From the NCBI GenBank assembly GCA_964465815.1, contig CAYXLF010000001.1, positions 1-33,344 on the forward strand: a stretch of DNA of 33,344 nt, given 5' to 3'. Shown piece after piece: positions 2,445 through 32,361 of the stretch. Position numbers and translations under genes: made by a program. The DNA is from an uncultured Candidatus Saccharibacteria bacterium. GTDB taxonomy: Bacteria > Patescibacteriota > Dojkabacteria > SC72. The notes beneath the pieces were generated by a model. It ran no database searches. It saw nothing but the letters and a program-made list of their open reading frames with translations, and was not told the DNA's origin. Within the stretch, counting starts at the first letter, position 1; each line of letters starts with the position of its first letter.

Positions 2445-3812
2445 ATGAAGAACTTCTTTATTCCAACTCAAAAAAACAGATACAAACCATACTTACTTCG
2501 AAAAGTGGCTTTGGTAGCATATTCTATTCTCATAGTTTTTGTTAATAGCTTTGGAGGTATTTTTGGCATAAGTAAAGTGGAAGCGAGTTCCATATCCATT
2601 GGGAATATTATCAATCTGACCAATCAAGAGAGAACGGCAAGTGGACTTAATGCATTAAATGAAAATTCACAACTGGATGCCGCAGCGTTGGCTAAAGCAA
2701 ATAATATGTTTGAGCAACAGTACTGGGATCACTTCGGACCCAACGGAGAGACTCCATGGCAGTTCATAAGGGCAGAAGGGTACAATTATGTCTATGCAGG
2801 CGAGAACCTTGCAAAAGGCTTCCAGACGGCGGAGGGAGTGCATGAGGCATGGATGGCAAGCCCAACACATGCTGCCAATATCATGAGTGGAAATTATAAG
2901 GATATAGGTGTGGCAGTAGTACAAGGCGTTCTTTTAGGAAAGCAAACAACTCTTGTAGTACAGATGTTTGGTAATTTAACAACAAGTGTCGCTGGAACCT
3001 CTACATCTGGAAGTACCAAATCTTCTAGTGGAACAGTGGTGGGTAATGAACACGGCGAGATCAAAAGTATAAGAATAACATCACCAGTACAATCCTCCAT
3101 ATCTACAGATCCTAGCCTAAATATTCAGGGGGAGACGGTAAATGTATCGGGAGAGTATGTTGTCGAAGTGTTAGATAACTCTGCGGTTGTTGGCGAGACA
3201 TCTTCTAGTGGAAATAGCTGGGAGTATGACAAATCTGGGGATTGGGCAGAGGGGGAGCATGTTCTAAAAGCTCAGGTTAAAGGAGAGAATGTTGTTTCTC
3301 CTGAGATTAGCTTTTCCATTGATTCTACTGCACCAGTTGTAGATCTTGCATCGATAACTGTTAACAAAAATCCCGATTCATATACATTGGCATTCCAGAT
3401 TGACAATACATGGACGGATCTTCGTATAGTCAATGGCGCGAATACAATCACGATTACGTCGGAAGACAAAGAAAATATCACAGTTGAAATACCATCAAGT
3501 GGATTAGGAACAAAAATTGTCATTATGGCTTCAGATATCCTAGGTAACGTCTCTCAGACTGATATTACAGAGTATTTTAAAACCGATAATGAAAAGACAA
3601 ATATAATCTTAAGTCTTCTTAACGCAAATATAGGAGACCAAATAAGTGTAGGTATTGTAATTCTGATATTTGTATTACTATGTCTTGAAACTTTTGTATA
3701 CTGGAAGAAAGGCAAATTGAAAGAAATGGTTGGAGATCTGTTTACGATTGGTGCATGGTGGCTAATATTAACGGTTGCAATATTTAATGGATTTACTGGT
3801 TTAATTAACTAA
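2445..3812 (+). CDS. CAP/SCP (YkwD-like) domain exoprotein with N- and C-terminal membrane segments
   Basis: 455-aa ORF with an N-terminal TM helix. The CAP-domain core reads NQERTASGLNAL ... HFGPNGETPWQF ... YAGENLAKG ... AWMASPTHAANI ... YKDIGVAV. An S/T-rich beta-rich region and hydrophobic C-terminal helices follow. Confidence 0.75.
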   Translation: MKNFFIPTQKNRYKPYLLRKVALVAYSILIVFVNSFGGIFGISKVEASSISIGNIINLTNQERTASGLNALNENSQLDAAALAKANNMFEQQYWDHFGPNGETPWQFIRAEGYNYVYAGENLAKGFQTAEGVHEAWMASPTHAANIMSGNYKDIGVAVVQGVLLGKQTTLVVQMFGNLTTSVAGTSTSGSTKSSSGTVVGNEHGEIKSIRITSPVQSSISTDPSLNIQGETVNVSGEYVVEVLDNSAVVGETSSSGNSWEYDKSGDWAEGEHVLKAQVKGENVVSPEISFSIDSTAPVVDLASITVNKNPDSYTLAFQIDNTWTDLRIVNGANTITITSEDKENITVEIPSSGLGTKIVIMASDILGNVSQTDITEYFKTDNEKTNIILSLLNANIGDQISVGIVILIFVLLCLETFVYWKKGKLKEMVGDLFTIGAWWLILTVAIFNGFTGLIN

Positions 3813-3823
3813 AACACTGCCCA

Positions 3824-4621
3824 GTGAAAAAATATAGATTAAAAGTACAAAATGATTTAGCCTATTTATTCATGCTTCTGGTTTTGACAGAATTTTTTAA
3901 CTATCTTGTTCCAATAACGAGAGATTTTACATTGATATTAACTGGTGTCATGGGAGTCTTACTTTTGGAAACTTGGTTTGTTAGAGCATTTGGAAAATAT
4001 TCCGGGAAGAAAATTTCTAAATACAGTGATGTTATCGTGCGAATATCGTTAAAAGAAAGATTCTTTAGTTATTTTGTTCTTCCTGCAATTTTTTATTCTT
4101 CTATCCTTGCGTTTTTGTATTTCAATAGAAATATGGTTTTAGGGCATGTAGTATTAGGCGTTTGCATGGTCTTGTTCCTGGTACTCTTCCTAAATGTTAA
4201 AAGCTCCTTAAACAAAATATATTCTGTTGCAAATGCGACTAGAGCAATATTTGATTTCATATGTATAACAATTCTTTATCTGTTGGTTAATGTTTATATA
4301 AGGGTTGGCATTTCTCTGACAATCTTTTCTCTCCTTGTATTTGTATCTGCATTTGTATTATTAATTTTCTCGCTAAAATTGCATAGACGAATTGGTGTAA
4401 TAGAGTTAGGTATATCTATGCTAAGCTCTTTGTTTATTGCTCTCTTAACCGCGATATTCTGGAATACAAATATTTTTGTAATTCCATTAATTAGCACCTT
4501 AGCTTTCTATTTAGTTATATCTATATGGAACATTAGATTTGCAGGAAAGATACACCTTGTTGATTACATCTTGCCATTTTTGTATGTAATACTTGCATTA
4601 ACACTAATATTAACGCTATGA
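3824..4621 (+). CDS. Polytopic membrane protein, unknown function
   Basis: 265-aa ORF with a GTG start and about 7 hydrophobic helices. No recognisable catalytic motif. Its stop overlaps the next start (ATGA). Confidence 0.6.
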   Translation: MKKYRLKVQNDLAYLFMLLVLTEFFNYLVPITRDFTLILTGVMGVLLLETWFVRAFGKYSGKKISKYSDVIVRISLKERFFSYFVLPAIFYSSILAFLYFNRNMVLGHVVLGVCMVLFLVLFLNVKSSLNKIYSVANATRAIFDFICITILYLLVNVYIRVGISLTIFSLLVFVSAFVLLIFSLKLHRRIGVIELGISMLSSLFIALLTAIFWNTNIFVIPLISTLAFYLVISIWNIRFAGKIHLVDYILPFLYVILALTLILTL

Positions 4622-5322
4622 CAGATAAAAAAATTGTACTAAAGATAGGGGGCTCAGTGCTCTTTGATGATGATTTAAATATCAATTTCCAACTATTAGA
4701 GAAAGTAAAACAATGGTATTGGCATACGATTCCTTCAGTTGAAAAATTGGCCATAATAGTTGGAGGTGGTCGTCTTTCCAGAGAGATACAGGCAAAGATG
4801 AATGGTGAGATTTCGAATCAGGACGCCTTGCACACTGTGGCAATGCAAGTAACTCAAACCAATGCTGCTTTAGTTCAAGGGTATCTTAATGACTCTTCCT
4901 CGTATTTGCCGAAAAAACTAGGAGATGCTTATGAATTTTTACAGGATAGTAGAAACAAGGCATTAGTTAGTGGTGGATTAAAAGTTGGTTGGAGTACAGA
5001 TATGGATGCTGCAGTTTTTGCGAATATTTTAGGAGTCTCACAGGTGTCCAAACTTTCAAATATTGATTATGTGTATGACCATGATCCAAATACTGATCCA
5101 GATGCTAAAGCTATAAAAGATTTAACATGGGATGAATATTACAAGATTTTCGGAATTACTGATGGTGATGGCCATATAGCGAACACAAGTATGCCAATAG
5201 ATGCTACATGTGCTCAGTTTTGTGCAAAGAAAGACATCTCCTTTTTCATTTGTGGTGGAAAGAATCTGGTAGCTAAGAACAACATAGATGAAATTCTCGC
5301 GGAAGGCACCCTAATACACTAA
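4618..5322 (+). CDS. pyrH: UMP kinase, archaeal-type (amino-acid kinase fold)
   Basis: 234-aa ORF. Motifs KIGGSVL, VGGGRLSR, GGLKVGWSTDMDAA, NIDYVYDHDPNTDPDAKAI and the length match the short archaeal-type UMPK layout. Confidence 0.7.
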   Translation: MTDKKIVLKIGGSVLFDDDLNINFQLLEKVKQWYWHTIPSVEKLAIIVGGGRLSREIQAKMNGEISNQDALHTVAMQVTQTNAALVQGYLNDSSSYLPKKLGDAYEFLQDSRNKALVSGGLKVGWSTDMDAAVFANILGVSQVSKLSNIDYVYDHDPNTDPDAKAIKDLTWDEYYKIFGITDGDGHIANTSMPIDATCAQFCAKKDISFFICGGKNLVAKNNIDEILAEGTLIH

Positions 5323-5786
5323 TCAATAGCTTGGACTACATATCTTGTATCACCTTTTGGTGTAGAGATTGTAACTTCTGCACCTAATTTCTTTCCCATT
5401 ATGGCTTCTCCAATGGGGGATAGATGAGAGATTTTTCCTTCTAATGGATTTGCCTCGTCTTCACTCGTGATTTCATACTTAATGTCTCTTTGTCCCTTTA
5501 ATGTGACTATATCTCCTATACCAACTATACTTTTATTTTTGTCTGTGACAACTTTTGCAGATTTGATTTTATCCTTAAGTTCAAGAATTTTTTCTTCATT
5601 AATCTGTTGTTCTTCGATAGCCATGGAATAAGCGTCATTCTCGCGTAAGTCTCCCTGATTTCGCATTTCATTTAGGGTATTTGCGATCTTCGCTCTTAGG
5701 ATCTCCTCTCGCTCTTTGAGCTCATCCTTTAGTTTTTTAAGTCCGGACAGTGTTGTCTGATATATGTTTTCACTCATATCTGACAT
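5319..5786 (-). CDS. greA: Transcription elongation factor GreA
   Basis: 155-aa ORF with a coiled-coil N-terminus carrying the canonical tip GDLRENDAY. The C-terminal globular domain reads ISHLSPIGEAIMGKKLGAEV. Confidence 0.9.
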   Translation of the reverse strand: MSDMSENIYQTTLSGLKKLKDELKEREEILRAKIANTLNEMRNQGDLRENDAYSMAIEEQQINEEKILELKDKIKSAKVVTDKNKSIVGIGDIVTLKGQRDIKYEITSEDEANPLEGKISHLSPIGEAIMGKKLGAEVTISTPKGDTRYVVQAID

Positions 5787-5830: not shown

Positions 5831-5858
5831 TGTCAATAGGGAGAAAATATGATAGAAT
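5831..5858 (+). promoter_or_regulatory. Putative promoter for tRNA-Glu (extended -10)
   Basis: TGTCAA (5831-5836), a 16-nt spacer ending in TGa, then TAGAAT (5853-5858). It sits about 22 nt upstream of the tRNA. Confidence 0.45.
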
Positions 5859-5880
5859 TACACCCGTAATTATGAGTTAT

Positions 5881-5955
5881 GCCGCTATCGTCTAACGGTT
5901 AGGACATAGGATTCTCAATCCTACAATCGGAGTTCGATTCTCCGTGGCGGTACCA
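5881..5955 (+). tRNA. tRNA-Glu (anticodon CUC), CCA encoded
   Basis: Manual cloverleaf. Acceptor GCCGCTA/TGGCGGT has G1.U72 and U6.G67 wobbles. D arm is GTCT-AACGGTTA-GGAC. Anticodon arm is TAGGA-TTCTCAA-TCCTA. T arm is CGGAG-TTCGATT-CTCCG, followed by ACCA. Confidence 0.85.
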
Positions 5956-7339: not shown

Positions 7340-7810
7340 ATGAAAGAAAAAGAAAAAATTTTACTTACGAAAAAGAAGAAAGAAGAGTTAGAGCAAGAGC
7401 TTAGTGATTTAGAAAACATTAAGAAACCTGAACTCTCAAGTAATCTTGCAGCTGCCAGGCAAAACGATTTGAGTGAGGATACCGACGATTTGAGTATAAT
7501 ACTTGTTGAGAAGGAGGTGATTGAGAATAGAATTGCGGAGCTTAAAGCAATACTATCTAAGGCTAAAATCTTTATCAAAAGAGTTTGTACTCCACAAAAG
7601 ATTGATATAGGGTCTAAAGTATCGGTTGAATTCAAAGGCAAAAAGCAGATGATGACGATTGTTGACCAATTAGAGGCAGATCCTCTTAAAGGCTATATCT
7701 CAGATCACTCACCTTTGGGAAAGGCTTTAATGAAGTCTAAGGTAGGGCAGACTGTAACAATCAAGGTTAGTGGAAAAACTGTAGAATACAAAGTGCTAGA
7801 GATTTGCTAG
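7340..7810 (+). CDS. GreA-family transcription factor, divergent paralog
   Basis: 156-aa ORF of the same length and layout as GreA. The tip motif is altered to NDLSEDTDD. The C-terminal domain reads ISDHSPLGKALMKSKVGQTV. Confidence 0.8.
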   Translation: MKEKEKILLTKKKKEELEQELSDLENIKKPELSSNLAAARQNDLSEDTDDLSIILVEKEVIENRIAELKAILSKAKIFIKRVCTPQKIDIGSKVSVEFKGKKQMMTIVDQLEADPLKGYISDHSPLGKALMKSKVGQTVTIKVSGKTVEYKVLEIC

Positions 7811-14976: not shown

Positions 14977-16521
14977 ATGGAAGATACTCAAAGAAGTGAT
15001 CTACTCGGACAAAGACAGGTAAGATTAGACAAACTCGCAGAGCTTAAGAAGTTAGGGGTTAACCCATATCCAGCAAAATCATACAGGGATCATTCTAACG
15101 GAGAAGTATTAAACAAATTTGAGGAATTTGATGGGAAAGACGTATGTTTGGCAGGTAGAATCATAGCTTGGAGAGAGCATGGAAAATTGGTATTTGGGAA
15201 TATCCTTGATCAGACAGGAAGTATTCAGTTAATGATCAGAGAATCTGACTTAGTTGAGGATCTTCAAAAAGGATATTTAGGTTGGGATAAATTGTATCTT
15301 TTGGATCTTGCCGACTTTGTTGAATTGTATGGAACGATAGGGAAGACAAGAACAGGTGAGATCACCGTTATGGTTAAGAGTATTCGTCTCTTAACTAAAG
15401 CTTTGAGACCAATTCCTCGAAAATTAGAAAACAAGGAGCAGATATTTAGAAGGAGATATTTGGATTTAGTAGTAGATAATGAATCATTGAAGCTTTTTGA
15501 AAGAAAAGCGAAATTCTGGCAGGTACAGAGAGATTTCTTGAGAGATCATGGATTTATGGAAGTAGAGGTTCCTGTATTGGAAGCTGTAACTGGTGGCGCA
15601 GATGCTACTCCATTCATAACTCATCACAATGCCTTGGATCAAGATTTCTATCTTAGAATTTCCACTGAGTTGTATCAGAAAAGATTGATTGGTGGTGGGT
15701 ATGAAAAAATATATACTTTTGGCCCTAACTTTAGGAATGAAGGTATGGATGATGAGCATCTTCAGGAATTTTATGATATTGAGTGGTATTGGGCTTATGC
15801 AAATTACAAGGATAATATGCAGTTGGTACATGACCTATTCTTAGAGATTGCTAGCAAGGTATATGGGAAGACTCAGTTTACAACCAGAGGACATACTTTT
15901 GATTTAGCGAATGAGTGGAAGGAGATAGACTATACCTCCGTCATAAAGGAGAGGTTTGGTGTTGATATCTTTAACGATTCTGACGAAAAGATGTTGAGTG
16001 TGATTAAGGAGAATAACATTGAGATGGGTGGAGAGGTGAATAGGAATAGGATGATAGATACACTTTGGAAAGCTATTAGAGCTACCATATCAGGTCCTGC
16101 ATTCTTGGTAAATCAGCCTAAGTTTGTTTCGCCTTTAGCAAAATCACATCAGGATAATCCTGATTTAACAGAGAGGTTCCAGGTGGTTATTGCTGGTAGT
16201 GAATTGGGTAATGGTTATTCTGAGATTAATGATCCTCAAGACCAATTAGATCGATTCCTTGAGCAACAGGCTATGAGGGATAGTGGAGATAGTGAAGCAC
16301 AGATGTTGGATATTGATTTTGTAGAGATGTTGGAATATGGTATGCCTCCTGTAAGTGGTTATGGTCAGAGTGAGAGAATTTTCTGGTTCTTAGAAGATAT
16401 TTCTGGTAGAGAGGGTACTTTCTTCCCACAGATGAGAGTAGAGGTTGAGAATACTACAAAACAGATATACAAGGACAGAGTCAGATTCAAGGAGAATATT
16501 AAAAAAGAGGAAAAGAAATAG
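14977..16521 (+). CDS. lysS: Lysine--tRNA ligase (class II)
   Basis: 514-aa ORF with an N-terminal OB anticodon-binding domain. Class II motifs include FRNEGMD and ELGNGYSEINDP, followed by GMPPVSGYGQSERI. Confidence 0.93.
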   Translation: MEDTQRSDLLGQRQVRLDKLAELKKLGVNPYPAKSYRDHSNGEVLNKFEEFDGKDVCLAGRIIAWREHGKLVFGNILDQTGSIQLMIRESDLVEDLQKGYLGWDKLYLLDLADFVELYGTIGKTRTGEITVMVKSIRLLTKALRPIPRKLENKEQIFRRRYLDLVVDNESLKLFERKAKFWQVQRDFLRDHGFMEVEVPVLEAVTGGADATPFITHHNALDQDFYLRISTELYQKRLIGGGYEKIYTFGPNFRNEGMDDEHLQEFYDIEWYWAYANYKDNMQLVHDLFLEIASKVYGKTQFTTRGHTFDLANEWKEIDYTSVIKERFGVDIFNDSDEKMLSVIKENNIEMGGEVNRNRMIDTLWKAIRATISGPAFLVNQPKFVSPLAKSHQDNPDLTERFQVVIAGSELGNGYSEINDPQDQLDRFLEQQAMRDSGDSEAQMLDIDFVEMLEYGMPPVSGYGQSERIFWFLEDISGREGTFFPQMRVEVENTTKQIYKDRVRFKENIKKEEKK

Positions 16522-16585
16522 AAAAACGATCCCCAGGTGTGCTCTCATAAGAGAAGTCCTGCACGTGGTGCACTGGGGATCGTTT
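16522..16585 (-). terminator. Y-shaped intrinsic terminator of a minus-strand RNA, abutting the lysS stop
   Basis: 13-bp closing stem AAACGATCCCCAG / CTGGGGATCGTTT encloses two small hairpins (TGCAC-cac-GTGCA and TCTC-ttat-GAGA). The T-run follows the stem only on the minus strand (GATCGTTTTTC). Confidence 0.6.
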
Positions 16586-16661
16586 CCTCGTCTCGGCTTC
16601 ACACAGAGTGAATATCGGATCCCGTGGGACCAAATATTGTCTGAGCACCGAGTTAAACGAG

Positions 16662-16735
16662 TGGCCATGAAGGGATTCGAACCCTTAATACTCTGCGGTT
16701 ATTTGCAGTGCTCTTCCAGTTGAGCTATCAAAGCC
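16662..16735 (-). tRNA. tRNA-like gene with a non-canonical anticodon arm (atypical tRNA, pseudo-tRNA or tRNA-mimic module)
   Basis: Canonical D arm GCTC-AACTGGAA-GAGC and T arm AAGGG-TTCGAAT-CCCTT. Acceptor GGCTTTG/CATGGCC has a U.U mismatch. Three nt lie between acceptor and D stem. The anticodon arm is only 16 nt (CTGC-AAATAACC-GCAG). No CCA is encoded. Confidence 0.45.
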
Positions 16736-16851
16736 AAACGATGACGAGAGAGTGGGGAAGATAATCTTTCCCAGGGAAAGGAAGACACCTTCCACACTCT
16801 ATTCAAGTAGGGGAGTACTTGATACTCATCATCAGACATATTCAGTTGAAA

Positions 16852-16880
16852 TGAACAGGTGTGATTTTAGCAGATAGAAT
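16852..16880 (+). promoter_or_regulatory. Possible divergent promoter for the 16930 operon
   Basis: TGAACA (16852-16857), 17-nt spacer, TAGAAT (16875-16880). It overlaps the minus-strand promoter back to back. Confidence 0.3.
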
Positions 16881-16892
16881 ATTATGGGTCAA
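16864..16892 (-). promoter_or_regulatory. Near-consensus sigma70-type promoter driving the minus-strand RNA locus
   Basis: On the minus strand: TTGACC (16892-16887), 17-nt spacer, TAAAAT (16869-16864). Confidence 0.6.
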
Positions 16893-16929
16893 TATCCTTT
16901 AATATATATATTTCTGATATCATTAATAT

Positions 16930-17292
16930 ATGGAATCCATATCGGATATATTAAAAAACCTAAAGCCACAAACAGAGGAAAAGAAAGAAACCAAACAGCC
17001 AGAGCTTTTCAATATGGATGAAATAAAAGATAATCCCAAAAGAATGTTTGGAGACAAACACAAATACATATCTACTGAATATCAAGTATATGGATTAAGG
17101 TTAGCCGGGAAGTTAGGAGATACGAAGCGTACAACAATGTATATTAAATGGGCAAAAGAAAAACCAAGAGCAATACTAGAGATGGCTTACAGTTTTACAA
17201 TTGATTATCCTAATGCCAAAGATAAAAGCAAAATATTTATGTGGAAGGTAAAAGAACTTGAAAATGAGAGAAAGAGTAAAAAAGAACAATAA
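16930..17292 (+). CDS. Hypothetical small basic protein (120 aa)
   Basis: Intact ORF, K/E-rich with predicted helices. No motif recognised. Overlaps the downstream permease gene by 35 nt. Confidence 0.5.
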   Translation: MESISDILKNLKPQTEEKKETKQPELFNMDEIKDNPKRMFGDKHKYISTEYQVYGLRLAGKLGDTKRTTMYIKWAKEKPRAILEMAYSFTIDYPNAKDKSKIFMWKVKELENERKSKKEQ

Positions 17293-28575: not shown

Positions 28576-28652
28576 CGGGGCGTAGTTCAGATGGCTAGAG
28601 CGCTTGCATGGGGTGCAAGAGGTCGCACGTTCAAGTCGTGTCGCCCCGACCA
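28576..28652 (+). tRNA. tRNA-Pro (anticodon GGG), CCA encoded
   Basis: Manual cloverleaf. Acceptor CGGGGCG/CGCCCCG has the C1-G72 pair typical of bacterial tRNA-Pro. D arm is GTTC-AGATGGCTA-GAGC. Anticodon arm is CTTGC-ATGGGGT-GCAAG. T arm is GCACG-TTCAAGT-CGTGT, followed by ACCA. Confidence 0.9.
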
Positions 28653-28694
28653 GTTTTTGTAGAAATTGATTTTTTAAGTTTCTTTAGGAACAAG

Positions 28695-29222
28695 GTGAAT
28701 AAACATGATGCTGATAAGCTAATGCATGAGAAAGTTGTTATCCAAGAATTTCTCGAGTTGTATAACGAAGTAAACAACGTAAATATAGTCTTCCTTCGGC
28801 ATGGAGATCCCCTCAAAAAAGAACCAGATGCAGTATGCTCAGAAAATATGTATATAGAGATGGTGGATATGTTCTCGCGTAACTCTGAAGCTGCTGAAAA
28901 ATGGTCTCAGATAAGGCATGAGAAAAAAGAAAGTCCCTTAGATCTGGTACTGAATACAAATGAACGTATTCAAGAACTTATATATTTGAAATCTCAGAAG
29001 CTTGATAATGGTCATTATGATGGAGTATTACCAGGAAGTAAGATTGTATTGCTTTGTAATGTAGAAAGTTTTGCAGTATCCGATCCTGAAGTTGCTTCGT
29101 TTATTGATTATTTCTACTCATTTTCTAAAGATCATATCTTCGAGAAGTACTTTGATGAAGTTTGGCTTATATGGAAACCTTCATTTTCTACTGTGAAGCA
29201 CATCAAAAAGATAGAGATTTGA
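28695..29222 (+). CDS. Hypothetical protein (about 175 aa)
   Basis: The track ORF starts at 28608, inside tRNA-Pro. More plausible starts are GTG 28695 (AGGAA 5 nt upstream) or ATG 28722. No confident domain was recognised. Confidence 0.5.
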   Translation: MNKHDADKLMHEKVVIQEFLELYNEVNNVNIVFLRHGDPLKKEPDAVCSENMYIEMVDMFSRNSEAAEKWSQIRHEKKESPLDLVLNTNERIQELIYLKSQKLDNGHYDGVLPGSKIVLLCNVESFAVSDPEVASFIDYFYSFSKDHIFEKYFDEVWLIWKPSFSTVKHIKKIEI

Positions 29223-31289: not shown

Positions 31290-31709
31290 ATGGATGATTG
31301 TATTTTTTGCAAAATTGTAAAAGGAGAGATTCCTTGTTTTAAAGTGTATGAAGACGACAACTATTTGGCGTTCTTAGATTTATCAAACTTCACAGAAGGG
31401 CATACATTAGTAGTACCTAAGAAACATTACAGATTTGTATGGGATGTGGATGATATCGAAGGATACTCTAATGTGGTTAAGAAAATATCAAATCATTATA
31501 GAAATAATCTGGGGTTTGCATATGTTGATACTCTTACCTTTGGAAGGATGATTCCACATGCACATGTACATTTGGTTCCTCATAATGCAGACTCTGGAGA
31601 TTGGGAAAAAGCGCTGGAGAAAATAGGGGAGCTACAGGGGGATTCAACAAGGAGATTATCGAAGGAAAAAGGGGAGGAAATAGCTAATAAATTTAAAATG
31701 CAAGGCTAA
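31290..31709 (+). CDS. HIT-family (histidine triad) hydrolase
   Basis: N-terminus reads CIFCKIV and the histidine triad is HAHVHLVPH. Start placed at MDDCIFCK (31290), which has GGAGGA 5 nt upstream. The track ORF starts at 31272. Confidence 0.88.
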   Translation: MDDCIFCKIVKGEIPCFKVYEDDNYLAFLDLSNFTEGHTLVVPKKHYRFVWDVDDIEGYSNVVKKISNHYRNNLGFAYVDTLTFGRMIPHAHVHLVPHNADSGDWEKALEKIGELQGDSTRRLSKEKGEEIANKFKMQG

Positions 31710-32083
31710 GCCCCTTTGTAAAGCTTTTGTAATTTTTTATCAAATGTTATCAATCTGGCATTATTCTCTTTTGCAAGAAAAAGTATGATTGAATCTATGG
31801 CTGTAAATGTGTTTGGAAGGTTTCCTGCGAAGTCTATATATCTTATGAGATTACTATCATCCAGAGTAGGTATTTCATCTGCTGCTTTCAATGTTGCTTT
31901 TATTGTGCACTCCCTTGCCCGTTTATTTCTTGTGTTACTCATTAGCTCGGCAATTACCATCGCAGGTATTAATATTTTAGAACTCTTTAAATTCTTCGCA
32001 ATATCTACTGCCAAGAGATGATTTATATCCTCTTCGTTGAGCAACGAACAAATGAAATTTGTATCTAAAAGAGACTTCTCCAT
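31706..32083 (-). CDS. vapC: PIN-domain toxin (VapC-like)
   Basis: Reads MEKSLLDTNFI ... AELM ... DSIILFLAKENNARLITFDKKL, with acidic residues at PIN positions. Start placed at M16 of the track ORF. Confidence 0.8.
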   Translation of the reverse strand: MEKSLLDTNFICSLLNEEDINHLLAVDIAKNLKSSKILIPAMVIAELMSNTRNKRARECTIKATLKAADEIPTLDDSNLIRYIDFAGNLPNTFTAIDSIILFLAKENNARLITFDKKLQKLYKGA

Positions 32084-32361
32084 TCTTTGTCTCTTTGTTC
32101 TCTTATATGTTTTGCACTGTTCTTGCATTTTGGATCAGAATATTTATAGTCTTTGACTTTCTCAAAAAAACTCTGCTTTTTCCCTACTTTTGCAAGATTT
32201 TTTTCTTTAGTGTTAGTGTAATCCTTAAAACTTGTTAATACCGCGATAGGATCTTTCATTTTTTTGTATCCTAGATAAACAATTCCTCCATCTTTAACAA
32301 AGGACATTGCTTCGGAAGGCTTCTTGTAAAATTCGGTTGTGCTGTAAGTCTTGCTTTTCAT
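32065..32361 (-). CDS. Antitoxin, Phd/YefM-like N-terminus
   Basis: 98-aa ORF directly upstream of vapC, overlapping it by 19 nt. The N-terminus TYSTTEFYKKPSEAMSFVKDGGIVYLGYKK ... PIAVLTSFKDY fits the Phd/YefM pattern. Confidence 0.65.
   Translation of the reverse strand: MKSKTYSTTEFYKKPSEAMSFVKDGGIVYLGYKKMKDPIAVLTSFKDYTNTKEKNLAKVGKKQSFFEKVKDYKYSDPKCKNSAKHIREQRDKEWRSLF

Follow-up and report, generated by a model that had tools for sequence, protein, structure and literature searches.

What kind of gene occupies the 408-nucleotide (nt) gap between lysS and orf120 in a 33,344-nt stretch of DNA from Candidatus Dojkabacteria (WS6) of the candidate phyla radiation, here called the window, where a tRNA-like cloverleaf is set within a longer structured unit on the minus strand (16522-16892)? 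In kind, the locus is a tRNA gene specifying a pre-tRNA, an unusual variant with very stable three-way-junction flanks that are missing from Rfam. The favored reading, to which a probability of about one half is given, is that it represents a lineage-specific accessory-tRNA cassette, the window copy of which would hold a decayed, tRNA-Ala-like cloverleaf that does not decode. All of the elements listed in an initial annotation of the locus were found at their positions.

A tRNA-like cloverleaf and a variable slot

The cloverleaf (coordinates of all features are collected in Table 1) was returned by ARAGORN as tRNA-??? with 'anticodon' (ta), and the Rfam tRNA model (RF00005) matched it over model positions 1-71 with 29.8 bits, a marginal pass of the gathering threshold of 29. 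Its D arm (GCUC / AACUGGAA / GAGC, with G18 and G19) and T arm (AAGGG / UUCGAAU / CCCUU) are canonical, its variable loop has 6 nt, and the shape of a tRNA is kept in the acceptor/T-stem stack and the D/T elbow. The anticodon arm consists of a 4-bp stem (CUGC/GCAG) and an 8-nt loop, AAAUAACC (16697-16704), without U33; an alternative drawing has 5 bp closed by an A-C mismatch and a 6-nt loop, again without U33, and neither presents a readable anticodon, defined as a 7-nt loop with U33 and a purine at position 37. The acceptor stem contains a U-U mismatch and a U-G pair and can be formed only with a 3-nt connector or an 8/4 acceptor/T register. An encoded CCA was not found at the 3' end of the cloverleaf, which reads ...GGCCA and is followed by CUCG. 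The genuine tRNA genes of the window (Glu-CUC at 5881-5955 and Pro-GGG at 28576-28652) are compact, encode CCA, and have short plain flanks. Conserved Dojkabacteria tRNAs at related loci likewise all encode CCA: tRNA-Glu and, in genomes further removed, tRNA-Gly and tRNA-Thr.

The closest database sequences were seven Streptomyces phage tRNA-Ala(GGC) genes, which were 76% identical to the window cloverleaf and had an identical D arm. This likeness is confined to the D arm and the anticodon stem, in which the same CUGC/GCAG pairing occurs. Alanine identity is defined by a G3:U70 pair; in the window cloverleaf, the register of ARAGORN places C-G at 3:70 and that of Rfam places U-G there. The element is read as a derivative of tRNA-Ala that would no longer be able to decode or be usable in its present form. 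A clean Rfam hit to a standard family had been named in the initial annotation as a finding that would speak against its proposal; what was obtained is the marginal tRNA score, with only noise at E <= 10 from every other family, and the leader, hairpin, and Y-domain that flank the cloverleaf match nothing in Rfam.

For comparison, 160 lysS loci were fetched from genomes and metagenomes (related loci are numbered with the prefix L); the LysRS of the window is 94% identical to that of Dojkabacteria/WS6-type genome bins. The gene order lysS-orf120-ABC-2 is kept in approximately 60 loci. The spacing between lysS and orf120 is 10-75 nt in most Dojkabacteria and 350-1600 nt in one subclade, and distant relatives are without the large gap. 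Eighteen loci, all of them in the large-gap subclade, are occupied by a minus-strand unit with a common promoter, a short 5' hairpin, a long structured leader, one or two cloverleaves, and a Y-domain that abuts lysS. The family promoter reads TTGACCnATAR-N12/13-TAnAAT-N5/6-(C)TGTTC, and all 18 loci keep this promoter with its TGTTC start on the same strand. Within approximately 1 Mb of related loci, this motif together with its -10 box and TGTTC was found only at modules in this gap, and the cassette is, as far as can be judged from these sequences, confined to the lysS-orf120 gap of the one subclade. The window unit has the same position, strand, and promoter.

The comparison demonstrates that the slot held by the cloverleaf is variable. 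At the same position and on the same strand, ARAGORN and Rfam identified tRNAs with Rfam scores of 41-76 bits and a range of anticodons (Table 1). Several of them encode CCA, and in these the discriminator base agrees with the anticodon (U73 for Gly, A73 for Thr, and G73 for Arg), for which reason such members look like working tRNAs. Similarity between cassettes breaks within a few nucleotides of the tRNA ends, at a U-rich spacer (UUUUGUU) on the 5' side and at AAAACAA after the CCA. L084 and L141 have Gly tRNAs of 86% identity with the anticodons UCC and GCC, respectively, and the Thr-UGU tRNA of L087 is 78% identical to that of L084; such same-position tRNAs provide apparent cases of in-place anticodon shift within a bacterial lineage. 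The LysRS proteins of genomes with differing slot tRNAs are 78-94% identical. The position of the nearby tRNA-Glu(CUC) gene is fixed across the whole group, which sets the slot apart from the tRNA genes typical of these genomes. The fallback offered in the initial annotation, an odd tRNA precursor with long flanks, comes closest to these comparative data, in which 18 loci have slot tRNAs within this score range and several of these have CCA.

Degenerate occupants are also present. The L086 cloverleaf derives from the L087 Thr tRNA, to which it is 75% identical; all its stems are intact, its D loop is shortened, and its anticodon loop has 13 nt. Non-standard anticodon arms were also found in L045a, L005, and L082. 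These members provide instances of decay in place elsewhere in the family, and the window copy is best described, from its sequence, as a degenerate member of the family.

Table 1. Positions of the features of the window locus, its neighboring genes, and the slot tRNAs of related loci
Locus	Feature	Position	Strand	Remarks
Window	-35 box TTGACC	16887..16892	-	followed directly by CATAA, giving the extended motif TTGACCnATAR common to all cassette promoters
Window	-10 box TAAAAT	16864..16869	-	17-nt spacer from -35 box, TG upstream
Window	short 5' hairpin TGTTCA / TGAATA	16839..16857	-	weak alone, z = -0.8
Window	three-way-junction leader	16740..16833	-	-42.4 kcal/mol, z = -7.4; then spacer GTTT
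Window	tRNA-like cloverleaf	16661..16735	-	z = -2.7
Window	post-tRNA hairpin	16588..16660	-	73 nt, irregular and bulged, z = -3.0
Window	Y-shaped 3' domain/putative terminator	16523..16585	-	z = -5.5
Window	lysS (LysRS)	14977-16521		adjoins the RNA locus, convergent with it
Window	orf120	16930-17292		120 aa, no family assigned; other side of the RNA locus, divergent
L001	Leu-CAG	5841-5915	-	short variable arm
L002	Arg-UCG	4627-4701	-	
L003	Thr-GGU	4616-4692	-	
L087	Thr-UGU	3200-3274	-	
L006	Gln-UUG			
L045	Val-CAC			plus a second, non-standard cloverleaf
L083, L141	Gly-GCC	L141:4134-4209	-	
L084, L085	Gly-UCC	L084:4109-4184	-	
L083	Ser-UGA	4214-4285	-	short variable arm
L004, L081, L104	two members			detected by Rfam only
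L082	8-nt anticodon loop CUUGAUAC	4505-4579	-	
L005, L086	degenerate forms			

Among the individual slot tRNAs, the L001 Leu-CAG and L083 Ser-UGA cloverleaves do not have the bacterial class II form expected for Leu and Ser. The L003 and L002 tRNAs encode CCA and score 63-66 bits, yet their D loops (AGUCCGCCA and AAUUGAA) are without G18G19. The L082 loop can be written C-U-[UGAU]-A-C, with the ARAGORN anticodon 'tgat', and is like the Ile-GAU-like loop of L004a plus one U; this tRNA is a candidate four-base (+1 frameshift) decoder or may represent a first step of decay.

Anatomy and homology of the minus-strand unit

The order of the frame is promoter, 5' hairpin, C-rich-loop leader, tRNA slot, bulged hairpin (in one subtype), and a three-way junction predicted to act as terminator. 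The promoter of the window has 10 of 12 consensus matches. Such sites are not rare, with 15 in the window, and the promoter is regarded as credible because the same position and extended motif are found in all related loci; transcription is predicted to start near 16858. At the site of the 5' hairpin, relatives have GTTCTT / AAGAAT, with matching changes in L002 and L003. In the leader, the outer stem is GATGATGAG / CTCGTCATC; the other arms are a small hairpin, whose loop CUCCCC (16810-16815) is C-rich, and a long hairpin of high G+C content. After the cloverleaf, the core of the irregular hairpin (5'-GGUG ... UUCA ... UGAAGCC-3') is conserved and contains a 3-nt GAA bulge. The outer stem of the Y-domain (AAACGATCCCCAG / CTGGGGATCGTTT) has 13 bp and is followed inward by two hairpins, one of which reads TGCAC-CAC-GTGCA. 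The domain ends in a TTTTT run (16522-16526) that abuts the lysS stop codon and of which the first three T pair within the outer stem. It was not called in a standard terminator scan because it is branched and not a simple hairpin.

The whole unit (16522-16870, minus strand, 349 nt) was folded at -130.2 kcal/mol (z = -7.9), and none of 100 shuffled sequences was as stable. The cloverleaf is retained in the minimum-energy fold of the full transcript with all four arms intact. In a comparison of the strands, the minus strand gave -129.7 kcal/mol, with 13 G-U pairs, vs -109.5 kcal/mol for the plus strand, an asymmetry that supports a minus-strand RNA. The G+C content is 0.42-0.53 over 16450-16750 and 0.27-0.40 in the flanks. 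No credible open reading frame (ORF) was found in the gap, where the only ORFs, of 41-92 aa, are unconserved and without a Pfam match; the same applies to the two small ORFs (46 and 92 aa) that lie inside the RNA. The anatomy proposed in the initial annotation has held up throughout: the gap is without a credible ORF and richer in G+C than its flanks, the TTGACC-17-TAAAAT promoter is on the minus strand and conserved in relatives, and the nested hairpins, cloverleaf, irregular hairpin of approximately 75 nt, and Y-shaped terminator with its T-run all appear in the predicted fold. A single self-contained minus-strand unit of approximately 335-340 nt, in which a tRNA-like module stands amid larger structured parts, is likewise supported.

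When the window RNA was compared with 80 related loci by BLASTN, only the promoter and the orf120 5' region matched. Since BLASTN was uninformative for the modules, covariance models were built from relatives with the window excluded: R1 from the Y-domain of 11 relatives, R2 from the leaders of L006, L084, L086, L087, and L141, and R3 from the post-tRNA hairpins of L006, L045, and L087, so that covariation support is drawn from 3-12 sequences. The top R1 match in the window was at 16523-16585(-) (19.3 bits, E = 0.0067), with all modeled pairs standard. Of the 18 occupied loci the model matched 16, missing L001 and L082, and it had no further match in the approximately 1 Mb of related loci. In the family alignment, 129 of 132 cells of the outer stem are paired, and the window carries three private compensatory changes (C-G to A-U, A-U to G-C, and C-G to U-A). 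The inner hairpin GCAC-N3-5-GTGC is present in the window as in the family, conserved in sequence and without covariation. The top R3 match was at 16588-16661(-) (16.9 bits, E = 0.011), and compensatory changes were found in this hairpin among its three relatives; it marks the subtype without encoded CCA and is missing from CCA-encoding members.

R2 found its own group strongly and did not find the window leader or that of L003, and for this reason no sequence homology is claimed for the window leader. The window and L003 leaders have only a 16-nt stretch in common (z = 4.9), and at least three unrelated leader types occur in the family. A CUCCCY motif stands in the loop of the first leader hairpin in the window and in L006, L084, L086, L087, and L141, on stems that differ, and is single-stranded in L003. 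The matches of R1 and R3 demonstrate the homology of the 3' modules. Taken by their sequences, the 3' two-thirds of the window unit are homologous to the family, and the leader has the architecture in common with it, not demonstrably the sequence.

If the locus is an accessory-tRNA cassette with a decayed occupant, a strong sigma-70-type promoter would drive one minus-strand RNA of approximately 340 nt that would be handled as a pre-tRNA. RNase P and 3' processing enzymes recognize the 12-bp acceptor/T stack and the D/T elbow. RNase P would cut at 16735/16736 and a 3' endonuclease near 16661, releasing a leader of approximately 120 nt and a trailer of approximately 140 nt, and the flanks would serve mainly for expression, processing, protection, and termination. 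Three points weigh against this reading. The window leader is without detectable homology to the main leader type, and the frame is in this part architectural only. Loss of stems and promoter would be anticipated in a simple pseudogene, and here all four arms remain, together with a near-consensus promoter and very stable flanks, a hint that the RNA has kept some importance. Finally, the transcript, its ends, and any processing are predictions.

Beside the tRNA cassette, a second module of approximately 330 nt was observed in three loci (L005:4881-5224(-), L082:4046-4390(-), and L001:4546-4991(-)). It has the family type of promoter and a simple hairpin terminator (GAGCCAACCCTCAGA...CTCGAGGGTTGGC), without a tRNA or an Rfam hit; in L001 it is overlapped by a 92-aa 'ORF', for which Pfam gave no match. 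This module looks like another unclassified structured RNA of the island.

Alternative explanations and known systems

The strongest alternative is that the leader or trailer is itself the product, a regulatory or protein-binding small RNA, for which the cloverleaf would be merely a processing or stability signal whose identity is free to drift; this is considered possible, at clearly lower odds than even. It would account for a slot that tolerates many identities and non-decoding forms under a promoter that stays near consensus, and the window cloverleaf keeps what RNase P needs, the 12-bp acceptor/T stack and the G18G19/T-loop elbow. The recurrence of the CUCCCY loop in the window and five relatives in spite of differing stems, the stem and U-rich tail with which the leader ends just 5' of the tRNA, and the stability of the flanks, far above that of shuffled sequence, point the same way. 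However, the diversity of the leaders (at least three unrelated types) and the loss of the hairpin from CCA-encoding members count against it, since the flanks are themselves not constant, and those same members, with their matching identity elements, look like working tRNAs. The usual target of a C-rich loop is also missing, there being no Shine-Dalgarno (SD) sequences in the window genome, and no conserved partner of the loop was found within the RNA.

Two specific functions of the flanks were tried and rejected. The C-rich loop as an anti-SD seed found no SD sequence upstream of 31 ORFs and no partner within the RNA. A T-box-like specifier was sought as a complement of the anticodon loop in the flanks, where only chance-level 5-7-mers occurred; the apparent match in L045 lies in a stretch that is also conserved in L006, whose anticodon differs.

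A tRNA-shaped element inside a longer structured transcript has precedents. A eukaryotic case is mascRNA, a tRNA-like module at the 3' end of MALAT1 on which RNase P and RNase Z act; among bacteria, tRNA spacer RNAs such as 3'ETS-leuZ are comparable. As in these systems, cleavage at the window cloverleaf would set the ends of the flanks and decoding would be unneeded. Nevertheless, the window scores 17.6 bits against a threshold of 42.5 for mascRNA-menRNA (RF01684), relatives of the window carry real tRNAs, and the likeness would be one of function only, through processing by analogy. With an ordinary pre-tRNA (RF00005) the window locus has in common the D and T arms, G18G19, the UUCGAAU T loop, and its own predicted promoter and terminator, and relatives have standard tRNAs at the site. 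It differs in the loop of 6 or 8 nt without U33, the absence of CCA, the acceptor mismatch, and a leader of approximately 120 nt and a trailer of approximately 140 nt that rank with the window's most stable folds.

A wider interpretation, held only tentatively and judged rather unlikely, is that the subclade keeps a dedicated, strongly promoted 'tRNA slot' within a conserved structured frame of leader and Y-terminator, where between close relatives whole tRNAs are exchanged, shift anticodon, or become non-decoding mimics, and that the window cloverleaf is a selected mimic or processing handle and not a dead gene. Were it true, the element could be a nuclease decoy or an RNase P 'punctuation' that frees a small RNA with a C-rich loop. 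Anticodon shift and alloacceptor remolding of tRNA genes have been described mainly from eukaryotic nuclear and mitochondrial genomes (PMC3923123, PMC4783518). The same-position slot tRNAs with Gly-GCC, Gly-UCC, and Thr-UGU, at 78-86% identity, resemble these cases, whereas here the phenomenon would be concentrated at a single bacterial locus, together with whole-tRNA replacement and decay, and the window occupant is non-decoding. If the pattern holds, the content of a bacterial tRNA locus changes far more quickly than the frame that expresses it, tRNA-shaped RNAs are retained without decoding ability, and two or three new structured motifs (the C-rich-loop leader, the GAA-bulged hairpin, and the Y-terminator) are absent from Rfam. 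The setting is an ultra-small genome of the candidate phyla radiation, where the biology of non-coding RNA is almost unexplored, and the locus would, if the pattern holds, offer a testable way to study how tRNA genes arise, die, and are remolded and how tRNAs guide RNA processing in bacteria. The searchable literature yielded no account of such a locus in bacteria of this radiation, which is a lack of hits and not proof of novelty. The feature itself is real and is conserved, and it is surprising how the slot turns over; the window copy may simply be a decaying accessory tRNA, in which case the biology would be ordinary in an unusual wrapper.

That the cloverleaf works as a non-decoding mimic, for instance a decoy or spare substrate for tRNA-targeting nucleases, toxins, or a tRNA-binding enzyme, is considered quite unlikely; turnover of the slot between strains would on this view reflect an arms race. 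The fast change of identity at 78-94% LysRS identity, including the GCC/UCC switch in an 86%-identical Gly tRNA, would fit an arms race, as would the altered anticodon loops of several members, whose stems are intact. In other lineages this gap, a hot spot, contains different cargo (a ParB-like ORF, a peptidase, and an orphan ORF), and a PIN/VapC-type nuclease gene is present in the window. This evidence is circumstantial, however: no toxin or defense gene is linked to the cassette, the PIN gene lies 15 kb off, the neighborhood consists of core housekeeping genes, and no copy was found in viral contigs and no match in plasmid records. In searches bearing on a phage or plasmid origin, the Y-domain patterns gave 0 hits in IMG/VR, no match to the cassette was found in plasmid records and Escherichia coli genomes, and in phage records only the cloverleaf was matched, as tRNA-Ala. 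The promoter pattern occurred in 8 viral contigs, where it was rejected as unrelated phage promoters before ORFs, with no tRNA.

It is improbable that no functional RNA exists at all and that the gap is an insertion or recombination scar, its palindromes serving as a bidirectional terminator for the convergent lysS and its cloverleaf a dead tRNA gene. The gap is missing in most Dojkabacteria and variable in others, the Y-domain abuts the lysS stop codon and scores approximately 11-26 bits on the plus strand too, and its GCAC...GTGC inner hairpin is conserved in sequence without covariation, all of which a scar could explain. A scar would not be expected to keep the promoter, TGTTC start, and strand in 18 of 18 occupied loci, to be 20 kcal/mol more stable on the minus strand with 13 G-U pairs, to show compensatory changes in the Y-domain and hairpin, or to leave the four arms of the cloverleaf intact.

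A divergent tmRNA, a YrlA/Y-RNA-like RNA, or a working four-base-anticodon tRNA is very improbable, this reading being largely refuted by the tests run on the sequence: in spite of a tRNA-like module with a tRNA-Ala-like D arm and anticodon stem (tmRNA accepts alanine), an anticodon loop that can be drawn with 8 nt, and a textbook 8-nt loop in L082, no tmRNA was found by ARAGORN and neither tmRNA nor YrlA was hit by Rfam in the window at E <= 10; the tRNA-like domain is contiguous and internal, with an anticodon arm, and not built from 5' and 3' ends; it lacks G3:U70, a tag ORF, pseudoknots, and a Ro-binding stem; no Ro/TROVE (rsr) or RtcB was found in any window ORF; and four-base decoding is implausible because the loop AAAUAACC has neither U33 nor a purine at position 37. 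The initial annotation had likened the layout to tmRNA and YrlA and added that it matches neither and that no rsr/Ro gene lies nearby. The last two statements stand, and the comparison itself is not needed given the tRNAs of the relatives. In one relative, YrlA (RF02553) scored 29 bits against a threshold of 69, over a span of two tandem tRNAs.

Gene context and minor observations

Beyond orf120 lie two ABC-2 permease genes, and the proteins of the window are mostly core housekeeping ones (RNase Y, two GreA, TrmD, three further aminoacyl-tRNA synthetases, MiaA, and PRPP synthetase). Mobile-element genes were not found in the window, and an exact-sequence look-up of two window proteins returned no public contig encoding either. 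No SD-like GGAG/GGAGG was present in the 25 nt upstream of any of the 31 window ORFs, and initiation in this lineage is apparently SD-independent.

Insertions of other kinds occupy the lysS-orf120 junction in other lineages, which makes it a general hot spot. Gaps of approximately 1 kb occur in L007, L008, L103, and L122, and L009 is also occupied by other cargo. Such cargo includes a ParB-like ORF and a peptidase-like ORF, both with weak Pfam matches below the curated threshold. A 238-aa ORF at L001:4981-5697(-) has almost no known relatives and a TTGCCCTATAAT-type promoter like that of the cassette.

The best-conserved DNA of the gap (91-98% identity in relatives) is not the RNA; it is a stretch with a near-perfect palindrome at 16906-16931 (ATATATTTCTGAT followed by ATCATTAATATAT), between the RNA promoter and the orf120 start codon, which may be an operator or a 5'-UTR (untranslated region) element of the divergent orf120/ABC-2 operon.

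Elsewhere in the window, GreA-family paralogues at 5319-5786 (-) and 7340-7810 (+) flank a tRNA-Glu / peptidase-like / TrmD cluster. A PIN-domain (VapC-like) ORF at 31706-32128 (-) adjoins a HIT-family ORF, 15 kb from the cassette and with no link found to it; VapC toxins commonly cleave tRNAs. A mechanically called 204-aa ORF at 28608-29222 (+) begins within the tRNA-Pro gene, and its real start is probably further downstream.

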